64,000 nt of DNA from a phage, in sequence record PZ445451.1. One strand, written 5' to 3'. This document shows, in pieces, positions 41,848 to 49,890 of this stretch; the stretch's first letter is position 1, and each line of letters begins with the position of its first letter. Position numbers and translations under genes: made by a program. The notes below the pieces were generated by a model, which was given only the letters and a program-made list of their open reading frames with translations, made no database searches and had not been told where the DNA came from.

Positions 41848-42114
41848 CTAATTACTGTTAGATCTGTACTCTGTCTTCCATTCACAATGGTAAACTTCAA
41901 CAGGTTCTAACTTCCAGTGTTCAGGAACTAGTTCAGGACAATATCTACAAAAGAGAAATAGATAGATAACTAAGACAGGTATTAAATAGTAAAATGGTAT
42001 ACGATCATAACCATACTTACGAGATAACATGTAGACATATAGATAGGGTATAACAATTAATCCTATAACTATAAGTAAGAAGAGAAGTATAAACCTTAGT
42101 GTAGTAACATCCAT
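41848..42114 (-). CDS. Small two-helix membrane protein
   Basis: 88 aa, two long hydrophobic segments. Confidence 0.45.
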   Translation of the reverse strand: MDVTTLRFILLFLLIVIGLIVIPYLYVYMLSRKYGYDRIPFYYLIPVLVIYLFLFCRYCPELVPEHWKLEPVEVYHCEWKTEYRSNSN

Positions 42115-42278
42115 AGTATTCTCCTATACAGTAATATACTCTGTTCCTGCCCCTCCATGAGTGACAGGAACAATATCTATAGAGAATACTAACTCGCTTC
42201 GCTCGTCACCTTTCAGGTTTAGGGTAGCATGTTTTTCTGAAAAAGTCAATACTCTCCACAAAACTTTACAAAATACTT

Positions 42279-42551
42279 TTACATAGGTACAACAGAGTCT
42301 GTTTTGAAGTCGTACATATGATTTACACCTGTGATTTTTGACATAGAGATCGCACGTTTAGCACCTGCAATTACCTGGTCTGTCTTCTTAATCTCTTCAC
42401 GGAACTTACGCACAGTTAGAGAGAAGAAACGATGATCCATCCATTGACGATTCACACGATCACGCTTGAAGTGACGGAAATCTTCAATCTGTTTATTGCG
42501 CAATCGGCGCAGTACATGCAATAATTTATAGTAAGGGTGTTTATTTTTCAT
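42279..42551 (-). CDS. Small basic protein, possible nucleic-acid binder
   Basis: 90 aa, rich in R/K. Confidence 0.4.
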   Translation of the reverse strand: MKNKHPYYKLLHVLRRLRNKQIEDFRHFKRDRVNRQWMDHRFFSLTVRKFREEIKKTDQVIAGAKRAISMSKITGVNHMYDFKTDSVVPM

Positions 42552-42554
42552 AAT

Positions 42555-42983
42555 TTATTCTCCAAATCGAAAATCGTCAATATCATCAAACCATACACAA
42601 TGGCGAGTCCTTTCTTTTTCTGTTGCAGACATTGTTTCAACAGCTTTAGGACTAAGCACAACAGGAATGTAACGAACAGGTCGTTCATAGTAGTAGCCAT
42701 ACTTTTCTGTATTAGCTGCCTCAAAGACTTTACGGCGTTCTTCAAGATCTTCTATGGTGAATCCTACCATATAACCATCATGTTTGCTACCCCATCCTTC
42801 CTCACTTTCAACAATCGGGATATAAAAGCCGTTACGCGTCCCTGACGCTGGTTTTTCTTGAGCCTGAAGGCAAGCCTCCCATCCTGCTTTAAAGACGTTA
42901 TAGAGCGATTTACGCACGTTATGAGTGCCGCTTTCGCTTGCTGGATAGAGTTCATTAAATTTATCTTGGATTTGTTGTGTCAT
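42555..42983 (-). CDS. Hypothetical protein
   Basis: 142 aa ORF. Confidence 0.45.
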   Translation of the reverse strand: MTQQIQDKFNELYPASESGTHNVRKSLYNVFKAGWEACLQAQEKPASGTRNGFYIPIVESEEGWGSKHDGYMVGFTIEDLEERRKVFEAANTEKYGYYYERPVRYIPVVLSPKAVETMSATEKERTRHCVWFDDIDDFRFGE

Positions 42984-43126
42984 ACTCGCCCCTTAGTGAT
43001 TATTTGACCAGCTAAACAAATAGCTTGTAGTACAATAAAGAAGTAGCCTAATTTTACACTACCCAATACCCAGAATGCAATGTTTGCAAACAAACAAAAA
43101 GCAATATTAAGTCTAAAGAATAACAT

Positions 43127-43327
43127 TTAATCCCCTTCATATTTAGGTAAAGGCATATATGCCACAATAGGAGGGTAATCAAAGTGAAAATGATGGTTCA
43201 CCACAATAATCTTACCAGACATACTTTTATGCACTTCACAATACCCTTTTTCACCATCTTCCATTACCACCACATACTCACCTAGTGGGATATCGTATGG
43301 ATCTTCTACTTTTACCCATTCTGTCAT
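43127..43327 (-). CDS. Hypothetical small protein
   Basis: 66 aa ORF. Confidence 0.4.
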   Translation of the reverse strand: MTEWVKVEDPYDIPLGEYVVVMEDGEKGYCEVHKSMSGKIIVVNHHFHFDYPPIVAYMPLPKYEGD

Positions 43328-43593
43328 TTTGGAAATACCTCTTGTCCATCTTCATGCATTTGTAGTAAAGTTTCACAGATTTCATACACATTCTGGTATG
43401 TTACAACTGAGAGATCAGATTCTTGATCTTCGACAAGCATAGCACAAAGAGCTTTAATGTCAATACCTTTACAATGTTCCGTAGCTACACGGTACATTTC
43501 ACCATCCTCCCAAACAATTGGTTGCGGGAGCAAAACATCTGTACCATCTTCACAAGTTACAATGTAGTCTGCAATATTATCACGAATTTTCAT
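43324..43593 (-). CDS. Hypothetical small protein
   Basis: 89 aa ORF with ATGA coupling. Confidence 0.4.
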   Translation of the reverse strand: MKIRDNIADYIVTCEDGTDVLLPQPIVWEDGEMYRVATEHCKGIDIKALCAMLVEDQESDLSVVTYQNVYEICETLLQMHEDGQEVFPK

Positions 43594-43847
43594 TGTACTA
43601 CCCCCTTAAATCCAGATGTACTGCCAGTTTTAACTTTTGCTTTAAGATGTTCCAACTCTACCATAGGTGTTGCTACTTGTATAGGATTTTCCTCAACCTC
43701 ATAAATATAATATTCATAATAAGCATACTTACCAATAGAGTGCAGATACTTAATTGCATGTTCAGGCGAATCTGCTTCAACATACCCTAAATCTTTTGTG
43801 GTACGACCTTCGCAATCACCTTCGGTAGTTACATGATAAAGTGTCAT
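43590..43847 (-). CDS. Hypothetical small protein
   Basis: 85 aa ORF. Confidence 0.4.
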   Translation of the reverse strand: MTLYHVTTEGDCEGRTTKDLGYVEADSPEHAIKYLHSIGKYAYYEYYIYEVEENPIQVATPMVELEHLKAKVKTGSTSGFKGVVQ

Positions 43848-43996
43848 AAAACCTCCTCATAGTAAGGTAAAGCCTTGATCAGTTGTTCTGAAGTGCCATT
43901 TTGCACCCACGTAACACCATTGTCAACAGAAACATACCCTTTTTTGTCAATAAATTTACGCAGACAGTCAGTGAACTTGTTTTTGTAGATAACCAT
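43844..43996 (-). CDS. Small ORF (50 aa), not in ORF track
   Basis: ATG after AAGGAG; stop overlaps next start (ATGA). Confidence 0.35.
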   Translation of the reverse strand: MVIYKNKFTDCLRKFIDKKGYVSVDNGVTWVQNGTSEQLIKALPYYEEVL

Positions 43997-44010: not shown

Positions 44011-44196
44011 CTATTGTTCTTTCTCAACTTTACGCAGTTCATCTCGGCAATTGTTTTGATATTTTTGATCATTTAGTTCCTCCTTTGTAAGGACTGTAAT
44101 TAGTAGTTCATTAACAAGTTTTGGAATTGATTTCCCTTCTGCCTTTGCGCGATTTAACAACGCGTTATAAGTTGCAGAGTCAAAATTAATATTCAT
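44011..44196 (-). CDS. Ribbon-helix-helix-like small DNA-binding protein
   Basis: MNINFDSATYNALLNRAKAEGKSIPKLVNELL resembles CopG/Arc-type RHH N-terminus. Confidence 0.4.
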   Translation of the reverse strand: MNINFDSATYNALLNRAKAEGKSIPKLVNELLITVLTKEELNDQKYQNNCRDELRKVEKEQ

Positions 44197-44211: not shown

Positions 44212-44568
44212 TTACATCCACAGATTATGGAAATACTTAGCAAACAAAATACGACCTTCTAAACGATCTTGCCGTTGTTTTTCATTAACTTCTTCCGGTG
44301 GAGTTGAGTCCTTAAAAGAAGACTCCATTTTTTCAAGAATTTCTAACCAGTGTTCTGCTGCTCGTTCTTCCATATAAGGTAGATAGTCACCTTTAGCGTG
44401 TGGGTACATCCGACGAAGTAACCCACTAGGAATTTTAATATTGTTTGTGGCTATCACTTTTGCACGATACGCAGAAAGTGCATTGTAGATCAGTTTACTT
44501 AGTGTCACATCTAGATCAAGAAGATCACTCTCTTCAAATTGAATTTCATCGTGTACAATTTTCATCAT
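44212..44568 (-). CDS. Hypothetical protein
   Basis: 118 aa ORF. Confidence 0.45.
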   Translation of the reverse strand: MMKIVHDEIQFEESDLLDLDVTLSKLIYNALSAYRAKVIATNNIKIPSGLLRRMYPHAKGDYLPYMEERAAEHWLEILEKMESSFKDSTPPEEVNEKQRQDRLEGRILFAKYFHNLWM

Positions 44569-44849
44569 GCCTTCTCCCGATCTGCGTCTAATTTCAACAA
44601 GAAAGCTGTATACTCTTCCGAACCTTGGTGTAAAAACATGCGATAAGAGCTTACCAGTTTTTTCGTTGTTGTATAACGTTCCATTTCCCCAACAATACCT
44701 CCACCCAGTGTGTAGAGCACAACACCCTCAAACCCAACATGAGTTACTACTTCAACCAAATCTGTGTTATCCCAATGGTAGTTAGGTGACACAATAAGAT
44801 CGCCAACTGTCAGTTTAATGTTTGCTGCTTCGTCTTGTGAATAGTACAT
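44565..44849 (-). CDS. Hypothetical protein
   Basis: 94 aa ORF. Confidence 0.45.
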   Translation of the reverse strand: MYYSQDEAANIKLTVGDLIVSPNYHWDNTDLVEVVTHVGFEGVVLYTLGGGIVGEMERYTTTKKLVSSYRMFLHQGSEEYTAFLLKLDADREKA

Positions 44850-44861
44850 TTTGTTCTCCTC

Positions 44862-45152
44862 TCACATTAAGACACGTTTTGTACCGATGGGAGCATTGTC
44901 GAACATGTTTATCACTTTGTCAAGTTTGTGTACTAACTCGTTCGTAATGTTCCACTCTTTGTATGATCTCCATTGTTTCTTATTCTCACCTACCTGGTGT
45001 AAAACTTTGATTGGTGCATTCAAACGTACATTGCGTTCTTTGTCCTCTTCAAAAGAGGCTAACCATTTTTCGTTATGCCCATGAACAGCAATAATAATGC
45101 CAAAACCATCAAAAGTTTCTGTAATATTCTTAGTTGCTAGTGTGATGTTCAT
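44862..45152 (-). CDS. Hypothetical protein, first gene of the minus-strand block
   Basis: 96 aa ORF next to divergent intergenic region. Confidence 0.45.
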   Translation of the reverse strand: MNITLATKNITETFDGFGIIIAVHGHNEKWLASFEEDKERNVRLNAPIKVLHQVGENKKQWRSYKEWNITNELVHKLDKVINMFDNAPIGTKRVLM

Positions 45153-45210
45153 ATCTAACCTCTTTTGTTACGATACACACAGAGTACCAGAAATTAATTT
45201 CAGATCAAGT

Positions 45211-45239
45211 ATTGACATACTGTTTTATTGTGCTAATCT
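45211..45239 (+). promoter_or_regulatory. Candidate sigma70-like promoter for the plus-strand block
   Basis: TTGACA at 45211-45216, weak -10 (TAATCT) about 16-17 nt downstream, in divergent intergenic region. Confidence 0.3.
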
Positions 45240-45271
45240 TAATGCATACACAAACGAGAGGAGATAAACGA

Positions 45272-45823
45272 ATGCAAAACACCGATCTGACTTGGATAGA
45301 AGCTAAAGAAGCCATGTTAAAAGGCAAACGCGTTAAACATAAATACTTTTGCGAAGGAGAATGGTTTGAAATGCGTAACCGATCCCTTGTAGATGAAAAA
45401 GGGAATGACATGGGACAATGGTTCAAAAATGAAATTTGGCAGGGAACAGGTTGGTCTATAGTTGAAGAGCAGCCTAGCCCAAGCGCACTGTTTAGCCCTA
45501 TTATGTATCGCGTTATCGGTGCTTTAGTTGTTGATCACGGGATTGCAGTGGAAAAAGAATGCTGGGAAGAGGTATCTTTTTTCAACCTGGCTTCTTATGC
45601 AAAAAGCCATATGCACTTGTTTGAAGAAGGGGATGAATTTGTTCTTCGTATGCGATATGGCAAAGAATTCAGATTACCACTTGATAATGATGTAGACACT
45701 GTTGTAAAATGGTTAGCAGAGCATTACGCTTACGATGCAATTTGTGGTCGCAGCTTCGGCAACGAACGCTGGGACATGATTTGTGAAAAATATGATTTTG
45801 AGCCGGAGTACGGAGTTTTATAA
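45272..45823 (+). CDS. DUF2829/Tad2-like N-terminal domain fused to an unknown C-terminal domain
   Basis: Start at ATG after GAGAGGAG; LTWIEAKEAMLKGKRVKHKYF...WQGTGWSIVEE recalled as matching the DUF2829 pattern. Confidence 0.4.
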   Translation: MQNTDLTWIEAKEAMLKGKRVKHKYFCEGEWFEMRNRSLVDEKGNDMGQWFKNEIWQGTGWSIVEEQPSPSALFSPIMYRVIGALVVDHGIAVEKECWEEVSFFNLASYAKSHMHLFEEGDEFVLRMRYGKEFRLPLDNDVDTVVKWLAEHYAYDAICGRSFGNERWDMICEKYDFEPEYGVL

Positions 45824-46074
45824 TGTTAAGTATCAAACCTAAAATGATAACAGCAGATGAAGCAGACTTTATTTTCAAATGTGGACGTGTATGGAGAGAA
45901 TTCACAAAAGGGAATGAAGTGGTGGTTGTTGTCGAACACAAGATATCTATCCAGGATCTGTTTGGACAATATGTTGATGTTATTAAATTAGGTATTGACA
46001 AGGGTTTAGTTGAGGTGTTAACATTAGATCAAGTTGAAGCAGAGCACCTCGATAAAGTGGTGGTTGAATTTTAA
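45823..46074 (+). CDS. Hypothetical small protein
   Basis: 83 aa ORF, start overlaps upstream stop. Confidence 0.4.
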   Translation: MLSIKPKMITADEADFIFKCGRVWREFTKGNEVVVVVEHKISIQDLFGQYVDVIKLGIDKGLVEVLTLDQVEAEHLDKVVVEF

Positions 46075-46094
46075 AATACAGACGGGAGAAAGGT

Positions 46095-46268
46095 ATGAGT
46101 TTCTTTGTTACAGTATTTATGGCTATCTGGATTGTAGTCTCACTCGTTCTTTTCCTGGTGGGTTGTCTGGAAGAGATTAAGAAAGCGGTTATTTGCGGTT
46201 TCTTTGGCTTTATTATCTCTCCTGCCTGGATGTGGTTCTTCATTATGATTGGTTTCCTTAAAAGGTAA
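46095..46268 (+). CDS. Small membrane protein (57 aa), not in ORF track
   Basis: Two hydrophobic helices. Confidence 0.4.
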   Translation: MSFFVTVFMAIWIVVSLVLFLVGCLEEIKKAVICGFFGFIISPAWMWFFIMIGFLKR

Positions 46269-46282
46269 GTGAGGAATAAAGA

Positions 46283-46720
46283 ATGAGTAAAACAAACGCA
46301 ATCGCAGATAAAGCAACGGATGTACTTCTGAACATGGTTAACGTCACTATTCAAACAATGAGTGATGTTGTGGAGTTTGGAAAACAACAAATTCCAGAAG
46401 TAATCCATCAATTATTAGTGTGGAAAGCAGTATCCGCAGGTTTATGGCAACTTTTTAGTATTTGCTTTATGCTTATTACTTTTATTGCTGTGCGGAACAT
46501 CGTAAAAGCAATTAAAGATAAAGAATGCCTGTGGTCACGAGATCGTTATGGTGAAGTATCTGCTTTACCTATTGTTGGTCTTGTTGTCTGTGCTTTCTTT
46601 TTCTTTTTAGGGTTTGTTATTTTCTTTTCGAATTTTGATTGGCTAAAAATCATTATTGCACCAAAAGTGTATCTGATTGAATTTGCTGCTGATTTAATTC
46701 GTTCATCTCAACAAAGATAA
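46283..46720 (+). CDS. Membrane protein, two transmembrane segments
   Basis: 145 aa with LWQLFSICFMLITFIAV and IVGLVVCAFFFFLGFVIFF hydrophobic segments. Confidence 0.5.
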   Translation: MSKTNAIADKATDVLLNMVNVTIQTMSDVVEFGKQQIPEVIHQLLVWKAVSAGLWQLFSICFMLITFIAVRNIVKAIKDKECLWSRDRYGEVSALPIVGLVVCAFFFFLGFVIFFSNFDWLKIIIAPKVYLIEFAADLIRSSQQR

Positions 46721-46732
46721 AAGGAGTTTAAA

Positions 46733-47860
46733 ATGAAATACACGATTTATGGTGATATTGTAAGTGTAAATAAAGATATGGGCGTGGAATCTAACTATCT
46801 TCCACCTGGATTCTATACTGTTAGTCGTGATCCCCTTGGCAATTATTTTTTAAGCCGTGGTAATCTGACAGGTGTACCGGATGTTCTGTATGGTGAAACA
46901 GAAAAACGAGCAAATCACGTTATTCGTACATTCCATCGCCGGAGTGCACAAGGTAAAAATACAGGCTTGCTTCTGACAGGAACTAAGGGCAGTGGTAAAA
47001 CTATGTTAGCCAAACTCATTAGTCGTGACCTTGTAGAAGAAGGTATTCCAACTATTATGGTTACTCAAGCCTACAGTGATGCTAATTTCATTGAACTTAT
47101 TAGCAAGATCACAGACAAAGCAGTCATTATTTTTGACGAGTTTGATAAAGTATATGAGAAGAAACAAGATCAAGAAGCACTTCTCACTTTATTAGATGGT
47201 ACTGGCAGTGGTAATAAACTGTTTATTCTGACTAAAAACAGTGGTTTTATCTCTGAATTCTTTTTAAATCGTCCTAGTCGTGTGTTTTATAATTTTAATT
47301 ATGATAAAATCTCACTAGAAACTATGATTGACTATTTAGATAAAAACCTGGATAACAAAGCACACTTTGATAATTTCCAAAGACTTTGGGATGTAAGTTT
47401 AGAGTTGTCCTTTGATGTGATCCAAGGTATAGTAGAAGAACTTAATTTCTATCCTGATTTATCCTTTAAAGAATGCATCTCTATGATGGGCGTTTCTTTG
47501 GGTGGTGGTAATAAATGGGATATCAGCAGCGTTGTTATTAATGGAAAACTTCAGAAAGTTAGCTGGGTATCTAGTTGGCATAACTTCACACCTGCAATCT
47601 TTTTAGGTGGTTCGTGCACACTAGACGTGTACTTGTCATCTCCAAGTGATGCAGACTCTAAAGAAGCCCTTGCTAATAGCTCTTACGTGGTTTTTGATGA
47701 TGAAGGCGATGCTCGAATTCCATTGAATGCGACAAAAATGAAAGCAGATCTTATTACAGGCGGTAAAATAGTTGTGTTTAGTGATGATCCAGAAGATTCT
47801 TTCCGTATTGTTCTGGAACCAACTATCACCAATGGTGCAACTTTGGCAAGTGTGTTTTAA
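46733..47860 (+). CDS. P-loop NTPase (AAA-like), paralog of 29835-30995
   Basis: Walker A GTKGSGKT, Walker B IIFDEFDK, LLTLLDG and NRPSRVFY blocks shared with the minus-strand paralog. Confidence 0.6.
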   Translation: MKYTIYGDIVSVNKDMGVESNYLPPGFYTVSRDPLGNYFLSRGNLTGVPDVLYGETEKRANHVIRTFHRRSAQGKNTGLLLTGTKGSGKTMLAKLISRDLVEEGIPTIMVTQAYSDANFIELISKITDKAVIIFDEFDKVYEKKQDQEALLTLLDGTGSGNKLFILTKNSGFISEFFLNRPSRVFYNFNYDKISLETMIDYLDKNLDNKAHFDNFQRLWDVSLELSFDVIQGIVEELNFYPDLSFKECISMMGVSLGGGNKWDISSVVINGKLQKVSWVSSWHNFTPAIFLGGSCTLDVYLSSPSDADSKEALANSSYVVFDDEGDARIPLNATKMKADLITGGKIVVFSDDPEDSFRIVLEPTITNGATLASVF

Positions 47861-47875
47861 GTAAGCCAGCAAATA

Positions 47876-47900
47876 AAAACCCGCTTCGGCGGGTTTTCTT
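47876..47900 (+). terminator. Rho-independent terminator AAAACCCGC-TTCG-GCGGGTTTT
   Basis: 9 bp stem with TTCG loop followed by T run. Confidence 0.6.
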
Positions 47901-47934
47901 GTATTAATACCAGATTTAATAAGAGGAGTAATAG

Positions 47935-49338
47935 ATGACAGCACCAAAATCATGGGAACAATATAAAGAAGAATTAACACCCCTTGCTAAAAATCACAAT
48001 ATTCAAATCCTGGGTTATGTTGGGGAATGGAAAGGGAGCAAGACTAAACTTAAACTATCTTGCCCTGATCATGGAGAGTGGGAAAGTACCACAATCGCTA
48101 AATTTAAAACTAAAGGCAGTAAATGTTGCCCCGATTGCAATGGTCGTAGAAAAGTAACAGAAGAAAAGGAATGTATTTCCCTTGTTGATATTGCTAAAGA
48201 AAGAGGGTTTACTTTTATAGGTCTTGCCGAGGAGTGGCGAGGTGTGCGAACAAAAATTCGCATAGTTTGCCCTAAACATGGAGAGTGGAACACCACGCAC
48301 ATTATTGATTTTAGGAATGGACGTGGTTGTCCTATCTGTTCTGGTAAGAAGCCGTTAACATGGGAAACAGAATTACCGATCTTGGCAGAGATAGCACAGA
48401 AGAAGGGGTATCAGGTGTTAGGGTACGTTGGAAAATGGAAAGGGTGTTACACAAAACTTGATTTGTTGTGTCATTGTGGGAACAGATGGGATACTACAAG
48501 TATTAACAGTTTTAAAAATGGCAATGGTTGTCCTTTATGTAGGAGGGAGAATATAAGGAAGGCAAAAACAATATCCGACGATCAACATATTGCAGATTTC
48601 TTTTCTACAGGGAAATTTAAGGAAGGCACTATCTTCACCAATACAGGGAAACGTAGTTGTAGTAAATCAGGAGATATTATCTGGATGATCGAGTGTCCTG
48701 TTTGCTCCCATGATGAATATGTTCAAGCAGGTGTTTGCGATGGTAAATTTTACTCTAGAGGAAGTGATCTTAAACAAGGAAGTATCCCTTGCCGCTGTGC
48801 AACTAGCTATCATTATACAGAAAATCAGATTACCTACAAAGTGAGAAAGGAAATAGAAAAGAAAGGGTATGTCTGGGTAGATTGGATTACCAAACCATCT
48901 TCTATAGGTAAGTTTAAATATCTTTGTCTTGTACATGGGGAGCAGATAGGGAGTGCTCGTAACTTATTAACTCAAGGGTGTGGGTGTTCACAGTGTGCTG
49001 GTCATAGTCAACAGCAATTATATATTAATATTGTTAAAGATAATGATATTACAGTTGCTCTTAAGTTTGGCATAGCTAAAGATAGTGACAGGCGATTAAA
49101 CAGTCAAAATAGCCGTAATCTGTTTTTTATGGAGCGTATTTGTTTATATGATTTTAGTACAGTGAAACAGTGTAAGGCTGCTGAAAGAGCTATAAAGAAA
49201 AAATTAAAAACTGGTATCTTAACAGCAAGAGAGTTGAAAGATGGTTATACAGAAACAGTAAGTGTTTCTGATTTGGAAAATCTTCAAAAAATTATTACAC
49301 AATATGGTGGCAAATTAGTATACAGTAAGGAGATGTAA
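47935..49338 (+). CDS. Tandem zinc-ribbon repeat protein with C-terminal T5orf172/GIY-YIG-like domain
   Basis: At least four repeats of CPxHGEW...F(K/R)xGxGCPxC; C-terminus QQQLYINIVKDNDITVALKFGIAKDSDRRLNSQNSRNL resembles T5orf172-type domain. Confidence 0.45.
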   Translation: MTAPKSWEQYKEELTPLAKNHNIQILGYVGEWKGSKTKLKLSCPDHGEWESTTIAKFKTKGSKCCPDCNGRRKVTEEKECISLVDIAKERGFTFIGLAEEWRGVRTKIRIVCPKHGEWNTTHIIDFRNGRGCPICSGKKPLTWETELPILAEIAQKKGYQVLGYVGKWKGCYTKLDLLCHCGNRWDTTSINSFKNGNGCPLCRRENIRKAKTISDDQHIADFFSTGKFKEGTIFTNTGKRSCSKSGDIIWMIECPVCSHDEYVQAGVCDGKFYSRGSDLKQGSIPCRCATSYHYTENQITYKVRKEIEKKGYVWVDWITKPSSIGKFKYLCLVHGEQIGSARNLLTQGCGCSQCAGHSQQQLYINIVKDNDITVALKFGIAKDSDRRLNSQNSRNLFFMERICLYDFSTVKQCKAAERAIKKKLKTGILTARELKDGYTETVSVSDLENLQKIITQYGGKLVYSKEM

Positions 49339-49890
49339 ATGCGGATTACTGATAAGTATGTGTTCTTCTTTTCAGCAAAAGATGAATTTAGCAACTGGTA
49401 TCTATCATCTTTTATTGAACCTTTAGCACCCAAGTATAATAATTCTATTACAAGTTCTGTTGAATTTACTTGTGTGGAACAATATATGATGTGGAGAAAA
49501 GCATGTTTGTTTTATGATTACAGTATTGCATCTTCTATTTTAACCGGAGATCTAAGATATACAGGAGAAAAAGAACAAGCATATTATAAGCGACTAGGCA
49601 GATTAGTTAAAGATTATGATGAAGATACCTGGACTTCTTTACGGGAGAAGATTGTCAAACGTGGTTTGTATCTTAAATACACACAAAATGAAGATCTCAA
49701 AAATAAACTTATAGCCTACGCAGATAAGGAGTTCGTAGAGGCAAGCCCCTATGATTCTATTTATGGTATCAAAATGGGGATGTGGGATCGTGATGTGGAA
49801 AATAAGGACTGTTGGAAAGGACAAAATCTTTTAGGAAAATGGCATACAGACCTTGCTGTTTATCTAAAAACACAATCTGATATTTCCTGA
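49339..49890 (+). CDS. NADAR (YbiA-like) domain protein
   Basis: FFFSAKDEFSNWY, CVEQYMMWRKACLF and DSIYGIK...GQNLLGKWHTDL align with the conserved YbiA blocks. Confidence 0.6.
   Translation: MRITDKYVFFFSAKDEFSNWYLSSFIEPLAPKYNNSITSSVEFTCVEQYMMWRKACLFYDYSIASSILTGDLRYTGEKEQAYYKRLGRLVKDYDEDTWTSLREKIVKRGLYLKYTQNEDLKNKLIAYADKEFVEASPYDSIYGIKMGMWDRDVENKDCWKGQNLLGKWHTDLAVYLKTQSDIS

Follow-up and report, generated by a model that had tools for sequence, protein, structure and literature searches.

Among the viral sponges that take up the signals of bacterial immunity, Tad2 is one of the main families known. The known sponges are short, homo-oligomeric proteins with positively charged pockets, and Tad2 in particular is often found fused to other sponge domains, such as Acb4 and Sequestin, the latter family having indeed been discovered through fusions of this kind (PMC12265669); the relatives of Tad2 have moreover diversified in their ligands, among which are His-ADPR, N7-cADPR (ADPR, ADP-ribose; c, cyclic), cCMP/cUMP and cyclic dinucleotides (PMC12393519). 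The subject of the present analysis is a protein of 183 amino acids (aa), encoded on the plus strand at positions 45272..45823 of a 64,000-nucleotide stretch of phage DNA (hereafter the window), in which a divergent, minimal Tad2-fold domain without the ligand signature of Tad2 has become joined, through an inversion, with an orphan domain. The sequence of the window has 100% identity to that of Escherichia phage PaulScherrer (Bas60, MZ501100; Stephanstirmvirinae, Justusliebigvirus, phi92-like), a position in the window being that in the MZ501100 record minus 32675. The open reading frame (ORF) starts with the ATG at 45272 and ends with the TAA at 45821-45823; it is annotated in the source record as the coding sequence (CDS) bas60_0105, a hypothetical protein, and is 99% identical to the phi92 CDS Phi92_gp217.

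The sequence-only reading of this gene had recognised a DUF2829/Tad2-like stretch of about 65 residues followed by a C-terminal extension in an unusual architecture, and the latter statement is borne out, residues 73-183 belonging to a separate family. In the PHROGs database, residues 4-65 match the 64-aa family phrog_3474 (E 4e-25) and residues 73-182 match the 110-aa family phrog_11295 end to end (E 3e-50). The protein can be divided, all on the plus strand, into an N domain of the phrog_3474 family with a predicted minimal Tad2 fold (45272..45466, residues 1-65), a junction or linker EQPSPSA (45467..45487, residues 66-72) and a C domain of the phrog_11295 family, which is a complete copy of a stand-alone protein (45488..45820, residues 73-183). 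An exhaustive phmmer search of 1.84 billion representatives returned 46 proteins, the two modules being mostly found on separate small proteins: the N module occurs alone in about 33 of them (22 of at most 80 aa and 11 with assorted extensions) and the C module alone in about 10, of 104-114 aa, one C-module-only protein having 191 aa and an N-terminal extension; in a single protein (P0017) the N module is duplicated in tandem. Further stand-alone proteins of 92-130 aa were retrieved with the C-module profile, and the phi92 cluster was the only N+C fusion found by profile searching; the fusion is specific to phi92-type phages. A word-indexed homologue search returned, with the whole protein, its own cluster only and, with the N-family profile, 30 small unannotated proteins. 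By tblastn, the N module is present in 510 phage records (Klebsiella, Escherichia, Salmonella, Citrobacter, Erwinia and others) and the C module in 140, nearly all of Stephanstirmvirinae, while 32 phage records match both domains closely (at least 90% identity for the N and at least 95% for the C domain).

Two long repeat proteins of the phmmer list (P0021 and P0022) were rejected as homologues, their scores being sums of chance matches of repeats like 'WNGTAWSIVASPNPAGAT'; P0003 is a third long repeat protein in the same list. A MAFFT alignment in which the two families and the fusion protein were combined was likewise discarded, the homologues of the C domain having been wrongly placed on the N domain, and the two domains were modelled separately. 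The extensions of the other N-family proteins carry no Pfam domain; an architecture that recurs among several phages (P0004, P0012, P0014; L002 4202-4636) consists of the N domain, a variable middle part and a very basic tail of the pattern KGKGHNKL(K/Q)K(G/R)KKK. The genomic surroundings of the distant C-domain homologues were accessory regions and uninformative.

Whether residues 1-65 are to be assigned to Tad2 receives different answers at the level of family and at the level of fold. A Pfam scan of bas60_0105 at E<=10 gave no match, PF11195 (DUF2829) included, so that the profile match expected by the sequence-only reading is lacking and membership in Tad2 proper does not follow; NCBIfam and PDB phmmer searches with the whole protein returned nothing useful, and none of 30 database homologues of the N module carries a precomputed Pfam domain. 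Sub-threshold matches to PF11195 were obtained for 5 of 33 N-family members (best E 0.0028), and the member P0015, when scored alone, reached 14.5 bits against a gathering score of 25 bits. When the N-family hidden Markov model (HMM) was run against all PDB sequences, SptTad2 ranked first (E 0.13) and two more Tad2 entries were among the five listed; by hhalign, the N family matches an alignment of SPO1 Tad2 and 15 homologues (Supplementary Table 12, Yirmiya et al.) with 91% probability and E 9e-7, over the first 26 columns only, corresponding to helix alpha-1 and strand beta-1, the C-module alignment giving 0.1% as a control.

The predicted structure is more telling. In an AlphaFold2 (AF2) monomer model of residues 1-69, obtained with no templates (predicted local distance difference test, pLDDT, 88.9), the Tad2 monomer fold, composed of an N-terminal helix and an antiparallel beta sheet, is present; a Foldseek comparison with 350,542 PDB chains placed six Tad2 entries at the top (template-modelling, TM, scores 0.56-0.65; probability 0.60-0.87), all of the subsequent matches having a probability of at most 0.10. 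As to fold, the earlier claim of Tad2 likeness is thus upheld: the structural evidence is decisive, and the N module can be described as a Tad2-fold domain of minimal size and divergent sequence, and not as a canonical Tad2, because there is no Pfam match and the GWNG and W..SQTD.LAEDW motifs are absent. Comparison with the characterised proteins (SPO1 Tad2 gp34.65, HgmTad2, identical to AcrIIA7, SptTad2 and ModTad2) shows what is shared, namely an N-terminal signature (F/W)xEAxxAxKxGxxV and the nature of small phage proteins of early or accessory regions, and what is not: the N domain falls below the Pfam threshold and has about 60 aa, whereas Tad2 domains have 80-105 aa and SPO1 Tad2 (89 aa) contains a beta2-beta3 insertion (SPO1 residues 36-59) which the N module lacks.

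The differences are most evident in the segments which, in Tad2, build the ligand pocket. Ten residues (G17, R22, G24, W25, N26, G27, W73, D79, D84 and W85) are invariant, and S76 nearly so, in 16 Tad2 homologues; they make up an R-x-GWNG loop and a W-x-x-S-Q-T-D-x-L-A-E-D-W segment, the same two segments from which HgmTad2 derives its pocket for glyco-cyclic ADP-ribose (gcADPR), formed by W21/N22/G23 and W87/L88/S90/T92/D93. Binding of gcADPR is markedly reduced in the W21A/N22A and S90A/T92A/D93A mutants of HgmTad2, and the site is predicted to be missing in only about 1% of Tad2 proteins. Both ligand motifs (R-x-GWNG-K and S-Q-T-D-x-L-A-E-D) were sought in the N family and are absent. The N family conserves A11, G18, H23 (or N), F26, E30, E42, G44, W50, W56, G60 and W61, all of which are present in bas60_0105, and the motifs found in place of those of Tad2 are H23-x-x-F26-(T/C)-x-x-E30 and W50-x-x-G-E-x-W56-Q-x-x-G60-W61. 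With the correspondence anchored on the shared glycine (G17/G18) and on the C-terminal W-x-I-V, the sequence alignment places F26, W50 and W61 at W25, W73 and W85 of Tad2, so that aromatic residues are kept at these three positions, whereas N26, G27, S76, D79 and D84 have no counterpart and H23, E30, E42 and W56 are conserved residues proper to the N family. In the same alignment the most conserved residues of the family (F26, E30, W50, W56 and G60-W61) fall in the segments matching those of the Tad2 pocket; since these pocket-equivalent segments are occupied with a different chemistry, the surface of the N domain would seem still to be constrained, probably for a different ligand or partner.

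These data bear directly on the possibility that bas60_0105 is a canonical Tad2, i.e. a tetramer whose N domain sequesters the Thoeris signal gcADPR (1''-3'/1''-2') and protects the phage from type I Thoeris. The specific match to the Tad2 fold and the weak profile similarity are what such a protein would display, but the PF11195 threshold is not reached and the GWNG loop as well as the S, T and D of W..SQTD.LAEDW are replaced, mutation of W21/N22 or S90/T92/D93 being what markedly lowers binding in HgmTad2. The absence of the gcADPR motif argues against a classic anti-Thoeris activity; sequestration of the Thoeris signal, as proposed from the sequence, is left unsupported in that form, and we regard a canonical Tad2 as the least probable of the explanations weighed here.

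The C domain is, in its predicted structure, an alpha/beta sandwich similar to that of secretion chaperones and of the YbjN family (DR_1245 6.7, DUF2170 6.4, AmyR 6.3), with further fold matches to frataxins and to the C-terminal domain of T4 MotA. The likeness is at the level of fold only; indeed, Pfam scans of 11 C-family members (E<=10) found no CesT, YbjN or other such family, and a search of the C-family profile against PDB sequences gave nothing relevant. With respect to type III secretion chaperones (the CesT/SycT/ShcF/ExsC class) and to the YbjN family (AmyR, DR_1245, DUF2170), to which there is no sequence or profile link, the C domain lacks the helix between strands 3 and 4, is phage-encoded outside any secretion system context and carries a set of basic and aromatic residues not described for those families. 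Five residues (K111, S112, R128, Y129 and G159, in the numbering of the full-length protein) do not vary among 22 diverse homologues, and three more (H113, R160 and W167) show at least 90% conservation; all of them are present in bas60_0105. A group of four basic residues with a serine, a tyrosine and a tryptophan would suit the binding of an anionic ligand, and such a site is predicted here from conservation. To the known sponge families (PF13876, PF21825, Tad1 and Acb2) the C domain and its homologues show no Pfam, NCBIfam or PDB sequence match, and its fold is unlike the predicted alpha-helical structure of the PF21825 (Sequestin) proteins.

Two different functions can be proposed for such a domain. 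According to the first, which is the main rival to the explanation favoured below, the protein is an adaptor or chaperone, whose CesT/YbjN-like C domain would form a dimer holding a polypeptide partner, for instance the product of the translationally coupled 83-aa gene that follows (see below) or a host protein, and whose N domain would serve as a further module for protein interaction, the whole acting as an inhibitor or decoy of a host factor and not as a small-molecule sponge. The fold of the C module, the location of the 83-aa gene, which in most of the relatives compared lies at the 3' end of the C-domain gene or close to it, and the original description of HgmTad2 as an anti-CRISPR are all in keeping with this proposal, although the likeness to chaperones lacks any sequence or profile counterpart and the invariant K-S-H/R-Y/G-R/W set would seem closer to a small anionic-ligand site than to a peptide groove. 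The association with the 83-aa gene is, moreover, not constant: in Citrobacter phage Tr1 an additional 82-aa gene is inserted between it and the C-domain gene, in Klebsiella phage phi1_175008 an extra gene (243 nt, about 80 aa) is annotated at the same place, and in a metagenomic contig (L010) the next gene called after the C-domain gene has 120 aa and starts about 170 nt downstream; Tr1 and the contig in particular speak against the proposal. On balance, an adaptor or chaperone appears somewhat unlikely. According to the second proposal, the C domain would be an enzyme which, through K-S-H, R-Y and G-R, breaks down an immune signal or alters a molecule of the host, the N domain recruiting the substrate. 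Phages do employ signal-cleaving enzymes, of which Acb1 is an example, and the polar constellation is conserved in the 22 homologues; there is, however, no likeness to any enzyme fold or family, and the fold class is typically non-catalytic, which makes this proposal very improbable. Both an enzymatic C module and a functionless fusion (see below) are less likely than the adaptor.

The way in which the two modules were joined can be followed by comparison with related phages. A block of about 1.2 kb (44212..45469) is inverted relative to its flanks; it contains three small genes (118 aa; 94 aa, phage-tudor; 96 aa, DUF7325) together with the divergent promoter region and the part coding for the N domain. 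In a blastn comparison with VEcB, a phage of the same genus as the window, 44217-44565 and 44855-45373 match in inverted orientation (97% and 89% identity, respectively), the flanks 42000-43990 and 45576-49500 being collinear. In the Phapecoctavirus Ro121c4YLVW the N module makes up residues 1-66 of gp098, which has 144 aa and continues with a C-terminal part of another kind, and whose gene is divergent from gp099-gp104; there, gp103 is a stand-alone C module of 112 aa and gp104 the 83-aa protein. The same unfused order is also found in Tr1 (with separate N and C proteins of 65 and 112 aa) and phi1_175008, two other Stephanstirmvirinae phages, in one metagenomic contig and in VEcB; since every outgroup is unfused, the fusion is, on this comparison, the derived state. 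At the junction, the similarity to the N module of gp098 stops after V64-E65-E66, at about 45469, and that to the C gene begins exactly at the former start codon, an ATG in the stand-alone genes that has become CTG in the fusion (L73, 45488-45490), one stand-alone C relative starting with MFSPIMY where the fusion reads LFSPIMY; the 18 nt in between (45470-45487, QPSPSA) match neither parental gene in DNA alignments with gp098 and gp103 of Ro121c4YLVW. The inversion of the block set the N domain in frame directly upstream of a once independent 110-aa gene, whose ATG turned into CTG within the fusion.

The event was not a clean reciprocal inversion, because a 61-aa ORF at the left breakpoint (44011-44196, minus strand), considered as a possible remnant of the C-terminal part of gp098, proved to be unrelated to it. 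This ORF, weakly matched by phrog_36888, is found neither in VEcB nor in Ro121c4YLVW and varies within the genus; many phi92-type genomes align only from 44200 onwards, and the left breakpoint resembles an insertion hotspot. The tudor-domain gene inside the inverted block (PF24144, 94 aa, 44565-44849, minus strand) is present in Ro121c4YLVW and missing from VEcB. At the other side, when the window intervals 45488-45823 and 45823-46074 are compared with VEcB (L005 3114-3703), the C-module allele has about 55-80% DNA identity to that of VEcB and the downstream 83-aa gene is 97-100% identical, the VEcB C-domain allele being close to the Phapecoctavirus allele instead; the change in identity is sharp and coincides with the stop codon of the fusion gene, and an allele replacement by recombination is implied.

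Selection on the two halves was estimated as the ratio of non-synonymous to synonymous substitution rates (dN/dS) among PaulScherrer, JohannJBalmer and EC.P2, on small counts: the comparisons with PaulScherrer gave ratios of 0.08-0.16 in the N domain and of 0-0.05 in the C domain, while the 7-residue linker shows three non-synonymous and zero synonymous differences among the three phi92-type phages. By these ratios both domains are under purifying selection. The fusion could nevertheless be a neutral by-product of rearrangement, with one or both halves functionless and an architecture devoid of mechanistic meaning, as might be thought from the accessory nature of both families, the mosaic hotspot in which they lie and the decay of the N-domain gene in VEcB-type phages. 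In VEcB this separate gene (gp144, L005 2062-2241) is degraded, coding for 59 aa with a deletion of the beta-hairpin after EWFEM, an altered C-terminus and the substitutions W8S and G18D; a near-identical 60-aa form of the VEcB protein is found in the database (P0026). Low dN/dS in both halves, with all conserved residues of both families kept while the linker drifts, and the occurrence of the fused form in 32 sequenced phages are not what neutrality would leave behind, and we consider a functionless fusion improbable.

The gene is the first on the plus strand after a divergent intergenic region of 119 bp (45153-45271), and the next gene overlaps its stop codon, in agreement with the earlier statement that it opens a plus-strand operon. 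A ribosome-binding site, GAGAGGAG (45256-45263, plus strand), lies 8 nt 5' of the ATG and is conserved in Ro121c4YLVW. A candidate sigma-70 early promoter (45212..45239, plus strand) was read directly from the sequence, with TTGACA at 45212-45217, a 16-nt spacer, TAATCT at 45234-45239 and TG at 45231-45232; the TTGACA block and surrounding bases are conserved in Ro121c4YLVW. A consensus promoter scan did not call this candidate, whose -10 element is weak; as an early promoter of host type, TTGACA with a TG-extended TAATCT is plausible. In other phages, too, members of the N family lie in early regions: a clear one (79 bits) in the left terminal repeat of the T5-like phage poul149 (L012 2989-3186), which we take to be the pre-early region, and another (64 bits) in the T4-like Bragavirus vB_SdyM_006 (L011 2480-2671), between the topoisomerase gene gp52 and motA/asiA. 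Such pre-early and early locations are typical for genes of host takeover and counter-defence.

The best explanation that we can offer, and which is held tentatively, is that of an early two-domain counter-defence binder made by inversion, a homo-oligomeric sponge being its most probable form. The fusion protein would be expressed early from the host-type promoter and would act non-catalytically, by binding, in counter-defence or in the takeover of the host; in such a homo-oligomeric sponge the Tad2-fold domain, possibly together with the basic and aromatic residues of the C domain, would sequester an immune signal that derives from a nucleotide but is neither 3'cADPR nor 3'3'-cGAMP (cyclic GMP-AMP), and two binding modules would thereby be united in a single polypeptide, as in Tad2-Acb4 and Tad2-Sequestin. 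That bas60_0105 is a non-catalytic early binder, and a sponge with changed specificity, is most likely by analogy, because Tad2 fusions are frequent, fusions revealed Sequestin and sponges share common traits (PMC12265669).

Several observations weigh against this explanation. Besides the missing Tad2 ligand motifs, the C-domain fold is most often a protein-binding one; the N module is, judging from its degraded gene in VEcB-type phages, dispensable in some backgrounds; and the abrupt mosaic boundary with which the gene ends on its 3' side points, from the identity values, to a history of recombination beyond a simple inversion. Furthermore, Bas60, used in experiments as a phage sensitive to the cyclic-oligonucleotide-based antiphage signalling system (CBASS), is restricted by the type I CBASS of E. 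albertii, which signals through 3'3'-cGAMP, and 3'3'-cGAMP accumulates in filtered lysates of Bas60-infected cells (PMC12265669); since the phage is restricted and the free signal accumulates, an effective cGAMP sponge is unlikely, and the ligand is probably neither gcADPR nor 3'3'-cGAMP.

With the described sponge fusions (Acb4-Tad2 of Pasteurella phage Pm86 and Tad2-Sequestin, PF21825; PMC12265669) the present protein has in common that a Tad2-fold module is joined to a small module also found alone, and that both modules stay conserved in each case; it differs from them in that the partner, phrog_11295, differs in fold and is not among the known sponges, the N-terminal position is taken by the Tad2-like module, a non-canonical one, and the fusion is limited to one phage lineage with a traceable inversion origin. 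What appears to be new is therefore the combination of a divergent minimal Tad2-fold domain, devoid of the ligand signature, with an orphan domain through an inversion. The definitions of Pfam PF11195 and NCBIfam miss this minimal branch, which is present in hundreds of genomes of coliphages and of Klebsiella and Salmonella phages used in therapy or as models; having kept the fold and swapped the ligand-contacting residues, the N family is a candidate for a new signal specificity or for a use other than as a sponge. The fusion is, in addition, a traceable case in which a small inversion across a divergent promoter has welded two accessory genes, and it nominates the orphan family phrog_11295 by the same logic that uncovered Sequestin. 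The most far-reaching version, in which phrog_3474 is a mini-Tad2 sponge class with a re-specified pocket, phrog_11295 a new sponge family and Phi92_gp217 a dual sponge, is proposed by analogy and is quite unlikely to hold as a whole; if true, a mini-Tad2 class would occur in more than 500 sequenced enterobacterial phages, including the terminal repeat of T5-like and the early regions of T4-like ones, and phrog_11295, with its K-S-H/R-Y/G-R/W site, would be a sponge family with a secretion-chaperone-like fold, recognised through guilt by fusion. Bas60 belongs to the public BASEL collection and grows on E. coli K-12, where these proposals are directly testable.

As for the rest of the operon, the downstream 83-aa gene (phrog_4868; 45823..46074, plus strand) overlaps with its ATG the stop codon of the fusion gene, and an overlap with the stop of the C-domain gene is also found in Ro121c4YLVW and VEcB. 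A search of the literature found nothing on Phi92_gp217 or on the three PHROG families. The identification of bas60_0105 with Ksap2, the small protein that triggers Klebsiella Avs2 (KpAvs2), was considered and ruled out, Ksap2 being a different gene, Bas60_220. Farther downstream, 47935-49338 (plus strand) codes for a 467-aa protein with four CapR homology repeats and a T5orf172 domain, hypothetical in the record and annotated as an endonuclease in relatives; it is directly followed by a gene for a YbiA-like/NADAR protein (49339-49890, plus strand). NADAR domains reverse the ADP-ribosylation of DNA, and this gene may be a further counter-defence gene of the same operon.
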